A stretch of DNA of 64,000 nt from Paratractidigestivibacter sp. (lineage in GTDB: Bacteria > Spirochaetota > Spirochaetia > Treponematales > Treponemataceae), in the NCBI GenBank assembly GCA_963644915.1, contig CAVIQW010000002.1:44724-108723 (forward strand), given 5' to 3'. Made by a program: the position numbers and the translations under genes. Of this stretch, positions 38,499 to 61,542 are shown piece after piece. Each line of letters opens with the position of its first letter. Positions within the stretch are counted from its first letter, which is position 1. The notes under the pieces are model-generated. The model saw nothing but the letters and a program-made list of their open reading frames with translations, had not been told where the DNA came from and searched no databases.

Positions 38499-38584
38499 GG
38501 AGCGATACCAAAGCGGTCGTACTGGGGCGGTCTTGAAAACCGTTGATCTTCACGGGTCCGGGGGTTCGAATCCCTCTCGCTCCG
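38499..38584 (+). tRNA. tRNA-Ser (anticodon TGA)
   Basis: Manual cloverleaf. Acceptor GGAGCGA/TCGCTCC, anticodon loop CTTGAAA, long variable arm, T-loop GGTTCGAATCC. No encoded CCA. Confidence 0.9.
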
Positions 38585-38590
38585 ATAGCT

Positions 38591-38675
38591 GGAGGTGTGG
38601 TAGAGCGGTAATACAACGGATTGCTAATCCGTCAGTTCCGAAAGGGCTGGGCAGGTTCAACTCCTGTCGCCTCCG
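38591..38675 (+). tRNA. tRNA-Ser (anticodon GCT)
   Basis: Acceptor GGAGGTG/CGCCTCC, anticodon stem ACGGA/TCCGT with loop TTGCTAA, long variable arm, T-loop GGTTCAACTCC. Confidence 0.9.
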
Positions 38676-38707
38676 AAATCACACAGCTTTAGCTGACATA
38701 TTTGAAT

Positions 38708-38782
38708 GAGATTGTAGCTCAGCTGGATTAGAGCACCACCCTGCGGAGGTGGGGGTCGCACGTTCGAATCGTGTCAGTCTCA
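38708..38782 (+). tRNA. tRNA-Arg (anticodon GCG as read by eye)
   Basis: Acceptor GAGATTG/CAGTCTC, D-arm GCTCAGCTGGATTAGAGC, anticodon stem CCACC/GGTGG with loop CTGCGGA, T-arm GCACGTTCGAATCGTGT. Confidence 0.8.
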
Positions 38783-38790
38783 AGGCTTGT

Positions 38791-38820
38791 AAAACCTGTC
38801 TTTAGATGACAGGTTTTTTT
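38791..38820 (+). terminator. Rho-independent terminator after the tRNA cluster
   Basis: Stem AAAACCTGTC / GACAGGTTTT, loop TTTAGAT, then a T-run. Confidence 0.85.
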
Positions 38821-38862
38821 ATTGATTTTTTGAAATTGTTATTGTAAGATTTTGTAACATTT

Positions 38863-38987
38863 GAACCCTTTGATGAGTCCAGATGCCTTTCAAAGTAACT
38901 TTCAAAACTCCGCCAGGACGGGAACGTAGCAACGGTATGAACTGTTTTACTTGTGCTTAGGATTATCTGGACTCTTCAAAGGGTTTG
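38863..38987 (+). ncRNA. ffs: Signal recognition particle RNA (small 4.5S type); ends approximate
   Basis: Long imperfect hairpin. ~21-nt arms AACCCTTTGATGAGTCCAGAT / ATCTGGACTCTTCAAAGGGTT close it. The apex CCAGG-ACG-GGAA-CGU-AGCA-ACGG reproduces the domain IV architecture (AGG / GGAA tetraloop / AGCA symmetric loop). A T-rich tail follows. Confidence 0.8.
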
Positions 38988-44266: not shown

Positions 44267-44581
44267 CTACGCGTTTTTTATAAGTTCAAGAATTGCATCT
44301 TTTGGAACCGCGCCTACATTTTTTGCCTTTTGTTCGCCATTCTTGAAAACAATCAGCGTTGGAATACTCATAATTCCGAAATTTTTTGCAAGAGTTTCTT
44401 CCTCATCAACATTTACTTTGCAGAATTTGAATTCGTTGTGTTCTTCTGCAAGCTCGTCAACCAAAGGTGAAAGCATTCTGCACGGACCGCACCAGGATGC
44501 CCAAAAATCAATTAGAACTGGCTTTTCGCTTTTTAGGACTTCTTCCTCAAAATTTTTTTCTGTTAAGGTTGTGAGGTTCAT
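44267..44581 (-). CDS. trxA: Thioredoxin
   Basis: 104 aa. [10 protein letters not shown] active site. Confidence 0.95.
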
Positions 44582-44613
44582 AGTTTCCTCTCTTATGTTT
44601 TTTAATATGAATT

Positions 44614-44796
44614 TTTGAGTTTTAATTAATTTGAAAGAACGCTCACGGAGAATTTACAATTTGCTCCAGATGGTTGAGCTCGTGCTGCGCTTGTATTAGT
44701 TCGGGTGCTTCGCACTTTAATCGGTTCAATCGCTCAAAATCTTCACAAATTGTAAATTCTCCTGCGCTTTTGTTCATTGTTTAAATTAAACTCAAA
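44614..44796. repeat. Structured palindromic element, copy A (candidate ncRNA or MITE-like element)
   Basis: The ~135-nt core (44633-44770) is ~85% identical to 54010-54150. Helices: TTTGAGTTTTAATT / AATTAAACTCAAA; GAGAATTTACAATTTG / CAAATTGTAAATTCTC; TTGAGC (44674-44679) / GCTCAA (44732-44737). Confidence 0.75.
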
Positions 44797-44917
44797 ATCA
44801 ATCTTATTCAAATATAAGATGGAATTTCTAAAATACAAATGAATTTTTTTTGATATTAGGACTTATTACTATTTACAAAATAAAAATTCTGCTTATAATA
44901 CTAATCATCAGGGGCGG

Positions 44918-45322
44918 ATGAAAGGAAAATCTATGCAGAGCAGAAATACAAACCAACGAAAATTGATTCTAGAGCTTATGACAGAAAATTATTCACATCC
45001 GACTGCTGACGAAATTTATGAGCTTGCAAGAAAGAAGGATTCGCACATAAGCCGAGGAACTGTGTACAGGAATCTGAATTTTCTTGCAGAAAAAGGGGAT
45101 ATTTTGAAAATAAGTGTTCCCGACAGTGCAGACCATTTTGATAGCACGATAAAGGAGCATTATCATTTTCATTGTTCAAAATGTGGAAGAATGTTTGATG
45201 TTCCAGAAACTGTTTCTGTTGAAATGGAGGAGGCTGCAAAAGAAATGAGTCTAAAAGGCTTTTTGGTGGAGGGGCATAACCTGATTTTTACAGGAATCTG
45301 TCCGTCTTGCAAAAAGGTCTAA
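44918..45322 (+). CDS. Fur-family transcriptional regulator (PerR-like)
   Basis: 134 aa. Winged-helix N-domain, HFHCSKCG and CPSCKK Zn site. Adjacent to rubrerythrin. An alternative start is at 44933. Confidence 0.85.
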   Translation: MKGKSMQSRNTNQRKLILELMTENYSHPTADEIYELARKKDSHISRGTVYRNLNFLAEKGDILKISVPDSADHFDSTIKEHYHFHCSKCGRMFDVPETVSVEMEEAAKEMSLKGFLVEGHNLIFTGICPSCKKV

Positions 45323-51802: not shown

Positions 51803-53839
51803 TTATTTTTCGGAATTGTCTTTTTTGATTCCTGGAATTTTTTCCAGAATTACGCTTTTTACAGAACTTAAGTCTTTTAGGTTGTCGGCAAGGTTTCCTG
51901 TAAGGTTGCTTAATCCAGAAAGCCCCTGGGCAAGTACGGAGTCGCTGAACATTGAGGCAATTTGCCATTTGTAAAGTTCGTTTACTTTACTGCGGATTAC
52001 AGTTCCTTTTGCGGTAAGTTCCACTCCGATTTCAAACTGGCGGTCCAAAAAGCAGAATGAGCCTACTTTTTCAAATGGCTTGAATCCGTTTTTTGGGGTT
52101 ATAAGGCGTTCTAGTTCAGAATTTATTAAGGTTTTTATTTCGTTGCTCTTTAACAGTGCGGTTGTGTTTTCAGACTCAATATTGTTTGATTTTGCGTATT
52201 CAATTATATTTTCTTTTTTTGGAATCAGCAGTGCACCTAGAAAATTTTTGTCTTGACCTACGATTACGGCCTGTGCGATGAATGGCGATTCAACCAGCTT
52301 GTTTTCTATCGGAAGCGGTTCAACGTTTTCTCCTGAACGCAAAACGATTGTGTCTTTTGCGCGTCCTTTTACCATGATGTCGCCTTTTCTAGAAAGGAGT
52401 ACAAGGTCGCCAGTGTTAAGCCAGCCTTCTTTTAGGACTAAATCTGTTAGTTCTGGCTGTTTGTAGTAGCCTTTCATAACATTGTCGCCACGGACATAAA
52501 GCACTCCCATTTGACCAGGTGCACATTCAACGCCGAATTTGTCTACAACTTTTATTTCGTTGTATGGCATTGCCTTGCCGATTGTACCCATTACAGGTTT
52601 TCTTGGGTTTCTTATGCAGATGATAGGTGCTGTTTCTGTAAGACCGAATCCTTCCACGAGCCTTATGCCGATTGAGTTAAAAAATCTGTCAAGTTTTGGA
52701 GCCAAAGCACCGCCACCACTCATTCCCACTTTAAAGTTGCTTCCAAAAACTGCGCGTGCTTTTGAAAAGAACATAACGTCGCCTAATGCTTTTAAAGGCA
52801 GCAAAAGTTCGCGTGGAATATAAAGCCATTTATTCAGTACGGTAAGAATCCACAACGGCTTTTTGAACTGAAGGTTGCGTCCCATAATTATGTCCAGCAT
52901 CCAGCGGCGAGTGGTTACAGCACCTATGCAAAGTTTAAAAAGAACTTTTTTAAAGGAAGATTTTTCTGTGGCGTTTTTTTCAATCTGCTTGTAGATGGCA
53001 TCCCAAATTCGAGGAACGCAGGCCATGAATGAAATGTTTATTTTTTTGAAATCCGCAAGAATCATGCTTGGAACAGGTTTTGAATAGCACAGTGAGATTT
53101 CTTTTGACATATAATAATATTCCATTTCTCGTTCGTAGACGTGCCAGACAGGAAGAACACAAAGAGTTTTGTCACCAGCTTTTAAATTTAATGTTTCGGA
53201 AATGCCTTCGATTTGGCACATAAAATTCTTGTGCAGAAGTTCAACGCCTTTTGGTGTTCCGGTTGTTCCTGATGTAAAGATTATTGTTGCAGTGTCAGTG
53301 TCTTTTCCGTTTTTTACGCTTTCTTCAATTTTTTCTGGATTTGAGTTTCTGAATTCTTTTCCAAGCGATAAAACTTCATCATAAGAAAGAACTTTTACAT
53401 CTGTCGCAGTTTTTTCAACATTTTTTATGTCAATAACAATAATATTTTCAAGTTTTTTTAGTTCCGGGCGACATTCAACAATTTTTTTGTAGCTGGAATT
53501 GTTTTCAACAACAATTATTTTACATTCCGCAAAACTTAAGATGTATGACAAGTCTTTTACAGTTGCTTCGCTTCCGCGTGGAATATCGCAGCAGCCAGCA
53601 GACATAATTCCAACAGAAGAAACGAGCCATTCTTTTCGGTTGTCGGCAATCAGTCCTATGTGGTCGCCTTTTGTTGCGCCTAAAGAAATAAGTCCTGCGG
53701 CAAAATTTAAAGATGTCTCTGCAAAATCCGCATAGGTTACAGGCTGAAAAATGCCTTTGCTGTCTTTTGAATACTGAAGAACAGCAGTTGGGGAATTTTT
53801 TGCTTTTTCATATAACATCTGTGGAATTGTTGAATACAT
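51803..53839 (-). CDS. Long-chain fatty acid--CoA ligase (AMP-forming)
   Basis: 678 aa. AMP-binding motif IIFTSGTTGTPKGVEL, plus GFGLTET and GDLV..GD.. motifs. Has a C-terminal extension. Confidence 0.85.
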   Translation of the reverse strand: MYSTIPQMLYEKAKNSPTAVLQYSKDSKGIFQPVTYADFAETSLNFAAGLISLGATKGDHIGLIADNRKEWLVSSVGIMSAGCCDIPRGSEATVKDLSYILSFAECKIIVVENNSSYKKIVECRPELKKLENIIVIDIKNVEKTATDVKVLSYDEVLSLGKEFRNSNPEKIEESVKNGKDTDTATIIFTSGTTGTPKGVELLHKNFMCQIEGISETLNLKAGDKTLCVLPVWHVYEREMEYYYMSKEISLCYSKPVPSMILADFKKINISFMACVPRIWDAIYKQIEKNATEKSSFKKVLFKLCIGAVTTRRWMLDIIMGRNLQFKKPLWILTVLNKWLYIPRELLLPLKALGDVMFFSKARAVFGSNFKVGMSGGGALAPKLDRFFNSIGIRLVEGFGLTETAPIICIRNPRKPVMGTIGKAMPYNEIKVVDKFGVECAPGQMGVLYVRGDNVMKGYYKQPELTDLVLKEGWLNTGDLVLLSRKGDIMVKGRAKDTIVLRSGENVEPLPIENKLVESPFIAQAVIVGQDKNFLGALLIPKKENIIEYAKSNNIESENTTALLKSNEIKTLINSELERLITPKNGFKPFEKVGSFCFLDRQFEIGVELTAKGTVIRSKVNELYKWQIASMFSDSVLAQGLSGLSNLTGNLADNLKDLSSVKSVILEKIPGIKKDNSEK

Positions 53840-53987
53840 ATCATCCCTTCTTTTTTTTTGCTTTTTGCCAAATTGACATTTTTTGTATTTTTGTCAGTAT
53901 ACTTAAATTTTATCACAATTTCCATAGAAAAAAAATATTTAGACACATTTTTTTTGAAATGGTTGCAGAAAAAAAAATAAATTGAGA

Positions 53988-54177
53988 AAATTTCGGGTTT
54001 TTTAGATTGTGAAAAAACGCTCTCAGAGAATTTGCAATTTGCTCCAAACGGTTGTGCTCGCGCTGCGCTTGTAATAATTTGGGTGCTCCGCACTTTAATT
54101 GGTTCTATCGCACAAAGTCTTCACAAATTACAAATTCTCTTGCGCTTTTATCGGTTTTCTTGGAAAACCCGAAATTT
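53988..54177. repeat. Structured palindromic element, copy B
   Basis: Same core as 44633-44770. Helices: AAATTTCGGGTTTT / AAAACCCGAAATTT; GAGAATTTGCAATTTG / CAAATTACAAATTCTC; TTGTGC (54052-54057) / GCACAA (54110-54115). Confidence 0.75.
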
Positions 54178-54290
54178 ATTCAAATAATATAAAATTTACC
54201 CCATCCATTTTCCTGTTTATTTAAAAAATCAGTTGACGTAGATATTTTCTTAGTGCTAATGTATTACATCGTCATCAGCGTTACTGTACT

Positions 54291-54380
54291 GGCGATTCTC
54301 TGGAGAGTTCCCATTTTCAGGTGGGACGCCGAAGGGTTAAGGTTATAAAAACCGATATCTCAGGCATAAGGGACAGGGCT
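54291..54380 (+). promoter_or_regulatory. Glycine riboswitch aptamer (single aptamer visible)
   Basis: Matches the conserved core CTCTGGAGAG ... GGGACGCCGAAGGG ... GGTT-ATAA-AACC ... TCTCAGGCATAAGGGACAG. It lies upstream of an AgcS-family symporter, which is a known glycine-riboswitch target class. Confidence 0.75.
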
Positions 54381-54405
54381 AAAAGATTCTTGTCATACTC
54401 TTTAG

Positions 54406-54461: not shown

Positions 54462-55925
54462 ATGTTCGACACAATTATCAACAAGATTGATGATATTGTC
54501 TGGGGTATTCCGACAATCGTCCTTATTCTTGTAACTGGATTGCTTTTGACAATCCGTCTTCGTGGTATGCAGTTCCACAAGTTGGGACGCGCATTAAAAT
54601 CAATTTTCCGAAAGTCTTCTGACAAAGAAAAAGGTGAAGTTTCTAGTTTTGGAGCGCTTTGCACGGCGCTTTCTGCAACAATCGGAACTGGAAATATTGT
54701 AGGTGTTGCAACAGCCATTGCGGCCGGTGGTCCAGGGGCACTTTTCTGGATGTGGGTTGCCGCTCTTGTCGGAATTGCAACAAAATACACAGAATGTATG
54801 CTTGCTGTAAAATACCGTAAGCATATGCCAGACGGACACGTTTTGGGCGGACCTTTCTATACAATTGAAACAGGATTGAAAGAAAGAACTGGTTTTTCAT
54901 GGAAGTGGCTTGCTGTTGTTTTTGCAATTTTTGGTGTTTGTGTAGGTCTTTTCGGAATCGGAACTTTTACACAGATTAACGGTATCGCTTCTGCTGTAAA
55001 AAATGCTTTTGACCCAGAAACAACGCACGTTGCTTTCTCTTTGTTTGGAACACAGTATTCTTGGGCAACAGTAATTGCAGGTGCTTTTGTAACAATTTTT
55101 GCCGCTCTTGTAATTATCGGCGGACTTCAGAGAATCTCAAAAGTTGCGCAGGTTATCGTTCCGTTTATGGCAATTCTTTACGTTTTCCTTGGTGTAAGCG
55201 TTCTTGTTATGAATGCAACAAAAATTCCAGCCGCATTTGCAATTATTTTTAAGGCCGCATTTGCTCCAAAGGCAATAACAGGCGGTGTTGTAGGTTCTAT
55301 GATTGTTGCAATGCAGAAAGGTATTGCGCGTGGAATTTTCTCTAACGAAGCTGGTCTTGGTTCTGCCGCAATCGCCGCTTCTTCTGCAAAAGTAGAAGAA
55401 CCTGTTGCGCAGGGACTTGTTTCTATGACAGGAACTTTTATTGATACAATCATTGTTTGTACAATGACAGGTCTTTCAATTGTAATTGCATTTAGCAACG
55501 GCGGAGTTTTTACGCTTCCAACAAATGGACTTGGCGAAACACTCAAAGGCATTGAACTTTCTTCTGCGGCATTCAATTCTGTTCTTGGCGGAGACGGTCG
55601 TTCGGTTCAGTTCCTTCTTATGGTTTGTCTTGTGTTCTTTGCGTTCACAACAATTCTTGGCTGGGACTATTATTCAGAACGCTGTCTTGAATATCTTTCA
55701 AACGGCAAAATGAAACTTGTAATGATTTATCGCGTAATCTACATTCTTGCAGTTGCAATCGGACCATATATGACAATCAGTCAGGTTTGGACAATTGCGG
55801 ACATTACAAACGGACTTATGGCTTGGCCAAACTGTATCGCGCTTATCCTTTTAAGCGGAGTTGCGGCTCGCACAACAAAAGATTACTTTAACCGATTCCC
55901 TACATTGGAATCTGAAAAAGCATAA
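54462..55925 (+). CDS. agcS: Sodium:alanine/glycine symporter (AGCS family)
   Basis: 487 aa polytopic membrane protein. AGCS signature GALCTALSATIGTGNIVGVATAIAAGGPGALFWMW. Confidence 0.9.
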   Translation: MFDTIINKIDDIVWGIPTIVLILVTGLLLTIRLRGMQFHKLGRALKSIFRKSSDKEKGEVSSFGALCTALSATIGTGNIVGVATAIAAGGPGALFWMWVAALVGIATKYTECMLAVKYRKHMPDGHVLGGPFYTIETGLKERTGFSWKWLAVVFAIFGVCVGLFGIGTFTQINGIASAVKNAFDPETTHVAFSLFGTQYSWATVIAGAFVTIFAALVIIGGLQRISKVAQVIVPFMAILYVFLGVSVLVMNATKIPAAFAIIFKAAFAPKAITGGVVGSMIVAMQKGIARGIFSNEAGLGSAAIAASSAKVEEPVAQGLVSMTGTFIDTIIVCTMTGLSIVIAFSNGGVFTLPTNGLGETLKGIELSSAAFNSVLGGDGRSVQFLLMVCLVFFAFTTILGWDYYSERCLEYLSNGKMKLVMIYRVIYILAVAIGPYMTISQVWTIADITNGLMAWPNCIALILLSGVAARTTKDYFNRFPTLESEKA

Positions 55926-61461: not shown

Positions 61462-61542
61462 GGGGGCGTTATGGGGAACTCCCCATACGGTGGGTAGTCT
61501 AAAACCGTAGGGTTTAGACGTAGGGCGGTTGCCCGCCCTTTT
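61462..61542 (+). repeat. GC-rich structured intergenic repeat, copy 2 (nrdD-nrdG spacer, antisense to the operon)
   Basis: GGGGCGTTATGGGG-AACT-CCCCAT hairpin. Then GGTGGGTAG plus hairpin GTCTAAAACC..GGTTTAGAC. Then CGTAGGGCGG-TTGC-CCGCCC plus TTTT. Confidence 0.6.

Follow-up and report, generated by a model that had tools for sequence, protein, structure and literature searches.

Short repeats with stable predicted hairpins and, in most cases, a mobile origin are known from several bacterial groups, and they are the natural comparison for the element considered here: a repeat of ∼200 bp present as copies A and B in a 64,000-nt window (the whole stretch of DNA analysed) of a genome from the Treponemataceae (assembly GCA_963644915.1, contig CAVIQW010000002.1, positions 44,724 to 108,723). 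The original prediction, made from the window alone, was of a novel structured RNA in two copies. We instead read copies A and B, with a probability of roughly 87%, as two old members of a high-copy Treponema family of transposable elements of the miniature inverted-repeat type (MITEs). ERIC (or IRU) elements of enterobacteria are imperfect palindromes of ∼127 bp that are intergenic and co-transcribed, with reported compensatory substitutions in the stem, and their copies are largely fixed at orthologous sites, without clear target duplications. The Treponema family shares with them the imperfect palindrome, intergenic placement and compensatory stem changes, but many of its copies look recent and retain intact duplications. 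Correia elements have a TA duplication and 26-nt repeats, whereas the Treponema family has a T(A/T)-rich duplication of 5–6 bp, 14-nt repeats and an unrelated sequence. In other respects the Correia (or NEMIS) elements of Neisseria are alike, as MITEs of 100–160 bp with terminal inverted repeats, a target duplication, hundreds of intergenic copies and a long hairpin, and those beside genes can supply promoters or RNA-processing sites (PMC3184786 and general knowledge). The bcr1 (or group-A) repeats of the Bacillus cereus group, of ∼155 bp (Klevan 2007 and Kristoffersen 2011, as far as the summary of both in PMC3184786 extends), are likewise non-autonomous mobile repeats in the 150–200 bp range with 5-bp direct repeats, a distribution that is not conserved between relatives and a stable fold kept by compensatory changes. 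They belong, however, to another phylum, and in that summary they are transcribed and adopt a two-stem cruciform-like fold; no sequence relationship between the two families is shown, and the Treponema family has one long predicted hairpin with true 14-nt terminal inverted repeats. A census of conserved MITEs (cMITEs) in prokaryotes found Spirochaetes (Leptospira, Sediminispirochaeta and Treponema) to be MITE-rich, with an average of ∼145 per genome, mostly intergenic (PMC11602168). Sequence strings of the present element gave only chance matches in the searchable literature.

Copy A, of the A type, lies at about 44606–44804 on the plus strand, in the family-consensus orientation; its boundaries, good to about ±5 nt, were set by aligning it with 58 other family representatives, and the family-profile nhmmer match covers 44613–44800. 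Copy B (53984–54181, plus strand) is a B-type member of the same family. The two have 84% mean column identity in pairwise alignment and match by BLASTN at 84.5% over 161 nt (E 1.5e-44) in identical orientation, much as the ∼85% same-orientation similarity first noted. No third copy was found within the 64-kb window by BLASTN, and the description of the element as two-copy holds for the window; it fails for the family, which occupies at least 178 positions in the loci fetched. Each copy, on either strand, folds as a single long imperfect hairpin with a minimum free energy of −57 to −62 kcal/mol and z of −5.8 to −7.0 (−7.0 for copy A), a stability reached by none of 200 dinucleotide shuffles. 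In copy A, a 16-bp sub-terminal helix pairs GAGAATTTACAATTTG (44648–44663, plus strand) with CAAATTGTAAATTCTC (44746–44761, plus strand) and encloses an asymmetric conserved core (44664–44745, plus strand), which contains an inner helix (TTGAGC at 44674–44679 with GCTCAA at 44732–44737, replaced by TTGTGC and GCACAA in copy B) and a small hairpin, GTGC-TTC-GCAC, at 44705–44715. These helices and the hairpin are all present where they had been described, and the differences between the copies in these helices do keep pairing. The view that the element belongs to no recognised Rfam family is likewise upheld, in that an Rfam 15 search of the copies gave no match at the gathering threshold and none at E ≤ 1.

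A scan of metagenome contigs with the 19-nt core pattern GGGTGCTNCGCACTTTAAT retrieved at least 120 loci (fetched loci are designated here by L and a number), and the family figures that follow rest on the matches listed. A profile search of these loci finds at least 178 distinct positions and at least 121 unique near-full copies, several of them commonly on one contig (e.g. at least 5 in the 77-kb contig OBSA01000021.1). A further 47 partial profile matches abut the end of the fetched locus, many of these being contig ends, as expected because the repeat breaks assemblies. From species-representative genomes, a scan with GAGAATTTNCAATTTGCTC, part of the 16-bp helix, returned 41 loci, of which two are true relatives, L004 from Treponema sp. 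UBA7590 and L041 from uncultured Treponema RUG314, each holding an orthologue of copy B; the rest were chance matches. The hosts are Treponema, of gut and rumen, wherever their taxonomy can be judged, L004 and L041 being so named and the AgcS homologues bearing Treponema names; synteny with the window, at 80–87% identity, is seen in L113, L048/L154 and L161.

When 104 copies are aligned together with 70 nt of flank on each side, conservation extends through the outermost helix of the predicted hairpin and then ends abruptly. The family consensus of ∼200 bp reads 5′-GCCTTAATTTCGAG T7-8 GCAAATTATGAAAGAACGCTCTCGGCAGATTTCCAATTTGCT ... core ... CAAATTGCAAATCTGCCTGCGCTTTTATTCTTTTTAC A6 CTCGACATTCAGGC-3′, with terminal inverted repeats of 14 nt (5′-GSCYKAATKTCGAG ... 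CTCGAMATTCRRSC-3′), runs of T and of A on opposite sides, sub-terminal arms that are long and imperfectly complementary, and an asymmetric core of ∼80 nt. The left terminal inverted repeat of copy A, TATGAATTTTTGAG (44606–44619, plus strand), includes the left half of that outermost helix and can be aligned both to the family terminus GSCYKAATKTCGAG and to A-type termini (in L157 and L100, for example, GTTTGAATTTTGAG); the right one, CTCAAAATCAATCT (44791–44804, plus strand), aligns with the family right terminus CTCGAMATTCANSC, with the caveat that a similar string in L113 falls outside that locus's own element. The termini of copy B are GAGAAAATTTCGGG (53984–53997) and CCCGAAATTTATTC (54168–54181). 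The original prediction had correctly placed and paired the outermost helix of copy A (44614–44627 with 44784–44796), but it held the helix to be completely different in the two copies, and this part does not stand: TTTTGAG/CTCAAAA in A and TTTCGGG/CCCGAAA in B are both variants of the family terminus ..AATTTCGAG TTTT.. / ..AAAA CTCGAAATT... To judge from the alignment, the helix is the element's own terminal inverted repeat, diverged between subfamilies, and not flanking DNA. The element itself (∼200 bp, with variants of ∼185 bp) has no transposase gene, and 1-nt frame-breaking indels between subfamilies together with stops in copy A leave no conserved open reading frame (ORF). An ATG-initiated open frame, seen by eye in the major-subfamily consensus, was rejected as a sign of coding potential because A stops after 9 codons and B is without an ATG.

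The hallmarks of transposition are found across the family. Of the 79 copies whose ends can be recognised, 49 are immediately flanked by exact direct repeats of 5 bp or more, which amounts to 44 of 73 distinct sites; when the left flank of one copy is paired with the right flank of another, the number averages 4.5 and never exceeds 10. Members of the GCC...GGC subfamily have duplications of 6 bp and those of the GGC...ACC subfamily duplications of 5 bp, and the duplicated targets are T(A/T)-rich (TAAATA, TATATA, TATTTA, TACTA and TAAAA). Nearly all evaluable copies (96 of 104) are intergenic, at a median of ∼65 nt from the nearest ORFs, and lie between divergent (38), tandem (28 + 12) or convergent (18) genes, the neighbours being unrelated. 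Orthologous sites differ in occupancy: the window, L041, L118 and L004 have copy B, whereas the syntenic spacers of L113 (= L179/L180) and of L177/L178 do not. The empty site is ∼50 nt of non-palindromic sequence with no hairpin, which rules out insertion into a pre-existing hairpin. Identical 14-nt ends also surround unrelated interiors, in an element of ∼230 bp (L144:5364, L125:9055) and in minis of ∼50 bp (L114:261) and ∼36 bp (L110:8777); such common termini fit one transposase moving several non-autonomous families. It had been argued that a plain MITE would show direct duplications and not copy-specific inverted flanks, but the inverted flanks prove to be the element's own termini, and direct duplications are what those 49 copies have. 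Many copies with terminal inverted repeats and target duplications were to be the sign of a MITE, and such copies abound (49 among the 79 with recognisable ends); two further signs proposed alongside it are not seen, since covariation is well supported (double changes in 28 of 68 pairs, with none of 500 shuffles reaching the observed score) and the sites without the element in L113/L179/L180 and L177/L178 show no pre-existing palindrome. With its high copy number, dispersal, presence or absence at orthologous sites and AT-rich duplications of 5–6 bp, the family is a MITE family as defined in PMC3184786.

The subfamily structure of the family bears directly on the differences between copies A and B. 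In other organisms, copies of the A type (L140, L137:5568, L100 and L075) and of the B type (L135/L080) stand at unrelated loci. It follows that A and B took over their ‘compensatory’ differences from different source copies and did not acquire them at their present sites; on present alignments these pair-preserving differences are subfamily-diagnostic. A variant of ∼185 bp that is without 15 nt of the core (CGCTACGCTTGTATT) is found at L159:12497–12681, L047:1186–1371 and about 20 other places, amplified at many sites with target duplications intact. Because this variant has spread, that stretch of the core is dispensable for mobility. Separately, we observed a subfamily with termini GCRTGAATTTGCAG / CTGCAGATTCATGC that forms head-to-tail tandem pairs with a 188–189-nt period (L058:1488–1876, L102:12057–12446, L124:2047–2436 and L149:6954–7343), the units of which have one terminal hairpin in common (CTGCAGATTCATGCAG).

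The helix differences that preserve pairing between A and B are real and generalise family-wide. Among 59 representatives, with the structure obtained by vote over per-sequence folds, there are 68 pairs with 89.1% of cells paired, and double changes affect 28 of these pairs (218 cells); the covariation score is 0.185, compared with 0.094 ± 0.004 for shuffles (0 of 500 reach the observed value) and at most 0.059 for slid partners. Covariation is seen in 11 of 14 terminal pairs, with 79% of helix 1 cells paired; the 16-bp helix of copy A corresponds to family helices 3–4, and helix 3 has double changes in 8 of 11 pairs; the inner helix (helix 6) covaries in 3 of 6 pairs, as UA/GC and as GC/AU/UA. 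In 97% of copies, complementarity is higher between the copy's own two arms than with arms from distant subfamilies. A DNA inverted repeat with co-evolving arms would be expected to show such covariation just as well, and the covariation does not demonstrate RNA, because there is no strand bias in G·U: would-be G·U mismatches between the arms occur about equally often on the two strands (232 on plus, 253 on minus), and transversions, at 1240, predominate. Orientation relative to genes is mixed among family copies, and A and B lie 24 nt and 144 nt, respectively, from different genes. Around A or B, no terminator-like sites were found and promoter-like matches are weak. Long, stable stem-loops are typical of MITEs, and compensatory changes are seen in some of them, bcr1 included (PMC3184786). 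Within each subfamily the two arms would have changed together, which would give both the RNA-like hairpin and the ‘compensatory’ differences between A and B. The likely causes lie at the DNA level: both ends must presumably suit one transposase, or template switching or repair in the quasi-palindrome may homogenise the arms, template switching being able to give multi-base ‘compensatory’ changes in one step (PMC8794818). Selection on RNA is a less likely cause than these.

As to the mechanism of mobility, a DDE-type transposase, supplied in trans by an insertion sequence (IS), would bind the termini, and insertion would occur at T(A/T)-rich sites through a staggered cut of 5–6 bp. Duplications of 5–6 bp are known in several IS families, which provides a lead only. 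The IS1202 family was set aside, as those ISs target dif sites and the Treponema element targets AT-rich sites. Other candidates were also rejected: the ‘solo’ ends at L044:8309 and L074:7518 belong to truncated or mini elements beside ordinary genes, and the interval L064:3700–7864, considered as an autonomous IS, holds ordinary genes. A scan of viral contigs with the terminus gave 5 chance matches only, and a consensus copy had no BLASTN match among plasmids and phages. The short elements that have these ends (GCCCGAATKTCGAG...CTCGAYATTTGGAC) on unrelated interiors were observed at L144:5364–∼5600, L125:9055(−) and 14248, L133:1371, L085:4896, L114:261(−) and L110:8777. Elements with the same ends and other interiors are probably mobilised by the same transposase.

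Several points weigh against the MITE reading. Terminal-sequence BLAST, a mismatch-tolerant search and a search for bounded repeats of 0.6–3.5 kb found, in the ∼1.3 Mb of fetched loci, no transposase gene lying between such termini. At neither A nor B is a target duplication recognisable, so both copies must be old, and their identity as MITEs rests on homology to copies in which one is. The nearly invariant columns of the alignment lie mostly in the core, which across subfamilies is more conserved than the termini, an unusual pattern for a MITE, although this is partly ascertainment in that the loci were fetched with a core pattern. Covariation at 45–100 nt inside the element, in helices 3 and 6, exceeds the needs of transposase binding. 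Finally, copy B is conserved like the adjacent riboswitch, which is unexpected of a purely junk copy, and in L004 its hairpin after 17 substitutions is predicted at −58/−63 kcal/mol against −49 ± 6 for random ones (p about 0.09 for the plus strand and 0.013 for the minus strand). The family is mildly unusual in that covariation reaches deep into the element and one copy is conserved as a functional element would be.

Copy B lies between a divergent gene for an AMP-binding (acyl-CoA ligase-like) enzyme (51803–53839, minus strand; Pfam PF00501 and PF23562) and a glycine riboswitch–agcS operon, upstream of the promoter-like sites of both; the riboswitch (54290–54386, plus strand; Rfam RF00504, 49.6 bits) stands upstream of agcS (54462–55925; AgcS-type symporter, Pfam PF01235). 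Orthologous copies are 99% (L041 and L118) and 91% (L004) identical to it, with 2 mismatches in 198 nt against each of the former and 17 against the latter. By comparison, the flanking genes are 86–91% identical overall (84–90% against L004), with only 56% and 74–76% at four-fold sites; other spacer DNA nearby is 85–92% identical, the riboswitch 97–99%, and the adjacent promoter plus riboswitch 98.5%. Copy B is the top-conserved 198-nt stretch of the 4.4-kb interspecies alignment (99.0%), 0.5% of alignment windows being as high. The terminal helix of the L004 copy has a G-C to A-T double change. Copy B would have entered its site before the split of the window species, RUG314 and UBA7590, and would have remained nearly unchanged since. 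Other pairs of orthologous copies vary, from 78% identity in L083/L117 (flanks 76–87%) to 94% in another pair (flanks 84–85%). Either exaptation or a recent recombination or conversion event limited to this segment may underlie the conservation of copy B.

Two side observations concern the spacer that holds copy B. In another Treponema lineage (L173, at ∼1000–1330, L174 and L175), the spacer upstream of the agcS homologue has a reverse-strand tRNA-like gene (..GGACTTGGACCCTCGACCCCGAGATTACAAATCACGTGCTCTACCAACTGAGCTAAGGCAGC..) in the place of the MITE. In addition, window positions 53868–53905 (GCCAAATTGACATTTTTTGTATTTTTGTCAGTATACT) show few changes among the window, L041, L004 and L113/L179, and are partly present in L173–L175, several of these being without copy B; this sequence contains a TGACA...TGTCA inverted repeat and is likely the promoter or operator of the AMP-binding-enzyme gene.

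Copy A lies between trxA, encoding thioredoxin (44267–44581, minus strand; Pfam PF00085), and a gene for a Fur-family (PerR-like) regulator (44918–45322, plus strand; Pfam PF01475), with a rubrerythrin gene confirmed in the same neighbourhood; the originally noted gene context of both copies was correct, by Pfam for trxA, perR, rubrerythrin, the ligase and agcS and by Rfam for the glycine riboswitch. The left end of copy A is 24 nt upstream of the trxA start codon, between that codon and any upstream promoter, so that trxA must be transcribed through or from within A, and copy A would sit in the trxA leader or promoter region. A minus-strand promoter-like site occurs inside the right arm of copy A (44776–44749, TGAACA-16-TACAAT, 9 of 12 matches), and that of the Fur-family regulator lies outside the element (44872–44899, TTTACA-16-TATAAT, 11 of 12 matches). 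The sequences that trxA and perR look-ups recovered for the spacer are from the same species and identical to the window and are therefore uninformative on the history of copy A. In L113 the trxA–perR spacer carries a major-subfamily copy whose TAAAA duplication is intact and which occupies essentially the same position as copy A. Directly outside that duplication (L113 10460–10490, minus strand), TAAAACTCAAAATACC matches the right terminus of copy A (window 44788–44803). The presence of this string beside the L113 copy suggests, as a matter of sequence comparison, successive insertion or replacement at one spot upstream of trxA.

It is possible, if tentatively so, that copy B and perhaps copy A have been co-opted as cis-regulatory DNA or as an RNA leader or small RNA (sRNA) and are now under purifying selection, B acting on the acyl-CoA ligase-like gene and the glycine riboswitch–agcS operon and A on trxA; such exaptation is compatible with a MITE origin. 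The contrast between 99.0% identity in copy B and the much lower identity at flanking four-fold sites argues for it, as does the retention of structure in place in L004, through both the double change in the terminal helix and the stability kept after the 17 substitutions. At copy A, the short distance to the trxA start and the promoter-like site on the correct strand point the same way, as does the family member at the same spot in the related L113, and there is precedent in the bcr1 and Correia elements, which are transcribed and affect expression (PMC3184786). Against this, copy B is upstream of, and not inside, the two likely transcription units; the G·U strand bias that selection on RNA might leave is absent; the near-total identity of copy B, including its loops and bulges, also fits recent recombination or conversion; and species without copy B retain the same genes and riboswitch. 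Moreover, the orthologous pair in L083/L117 is not specially conserved, and copy B is carried by three species only, so that its in-place covariation amounts to one or two events.

We consider rather doubtful the broader proposal that the family is a MITE carrying conserved, structure-constrained cargo, consisting of the ∼80-nt core and the co-varying arms, whose insertions have been repeatedly domesticated. If it were true, copy B would be a selected cis-regulatory DNA or RNA module beside the riboswitch–agcS operon and copy A a trxA leader or promoter; far from being junk, the family would be a regulatory hairpin that moves, and selection on a folded single strand, whether RNA or DNA, would lie behind the deep covariation.

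Three further explanations are rivals of the MITE reading. A free-standing structured non-coding or cis-regulatory RNA family, non-mobile and duplicated by ordinary means, would account for the strong predicted structure, the family-wide covariation and the conserved core, but it is contradicted by the direct duplications and sharp termini, by at least 178 positions beside unrelated genes in mixed orientations, by the same ends on unrelated interiors, and by presence or absence at orthologous sites, and it leaves neither a strand-specific wobble signature nor an Rfam match; we consider it highly improbable. The novel two-copy structured RNA of the original prediction accordingly gives way to a MITE, on the grounds of the duplications, the number of positions, the presence/absence pattern and the lack of a G·U strand bias. 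A REP/REPIN, or a palindromic element derived from IS200/IS605, moved by a single-strand (HUH/Y1) transposase would also be hairpin-rich, with arm complementarity maintained, and some tandem arrays in the family do have one common terminal hairpin (L058, L102, L124 and L149). To our knowledge, however, REP/REPIN and IS200/IS605-derived elements have no target duplications and no terminal inverted repeats, both of which the Treponema family has; the Treponema element is moreover AT-rich and ∼200 bp long, not a GC-rich palindrome of 20–40 nt, and no associated RAYT or TnpA(Y1) gene was seen, making this origin very hard to credit. Least probable of all is a mobile element that targets palindromes and enters the loops of existing hairpins, which was suggested by the different complementary outermost helix of A and of B, given that these helices are homologous to the family termini, that younger copies are flanked by direct and not inverted repeats, and that the spacers without copy B (L113/L179 and L177) hold no palindrome or hairpin at the site.

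Two other features of the window were observed in passing. A second small repeat at 61463–61541, with GC-rich hairpins and a terminator-like end (GGGCGGTTGCCCGCCCTTTT), recurs at 76–82% identity in L004 (5003–5079), L041, L118, L075, L083 and L117, apparently at gene 3′ ends, and may be another dispersed repeat family. At 38499–38975, a cluster of three tRNA genes is followed by a small signal recognition particle (SRP) RNA (Rfam RF00169, 62.9 bits), and L048 and L154 match the tRNA block at 97% identity.

For annotation, recognition of copies A and B as MITEs removes a false ‘novel structured RNA’ candidate. Diverged terminal repeats of a MITE can mimic copy-specific helices with perfect covariation, and this is a trap for covariation-based RNA discovery because shuffle and slide controls are also passed by a DNA inverted repeat whose arms co-evolve. 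The analysis delineates a high-copy MITE family of ∼200 bp in Treponema, giving its subfamilies, its ends and the targets it prefers. Its copies break assemblies, serve as marks of lineage-specific insertions and adjoin redox (trxA/perR) and amino-acid uptake genes. Copy B, no less tightly conserved than the riboswitch beside it, is a concrete instance in which a MITE may have been exapted.

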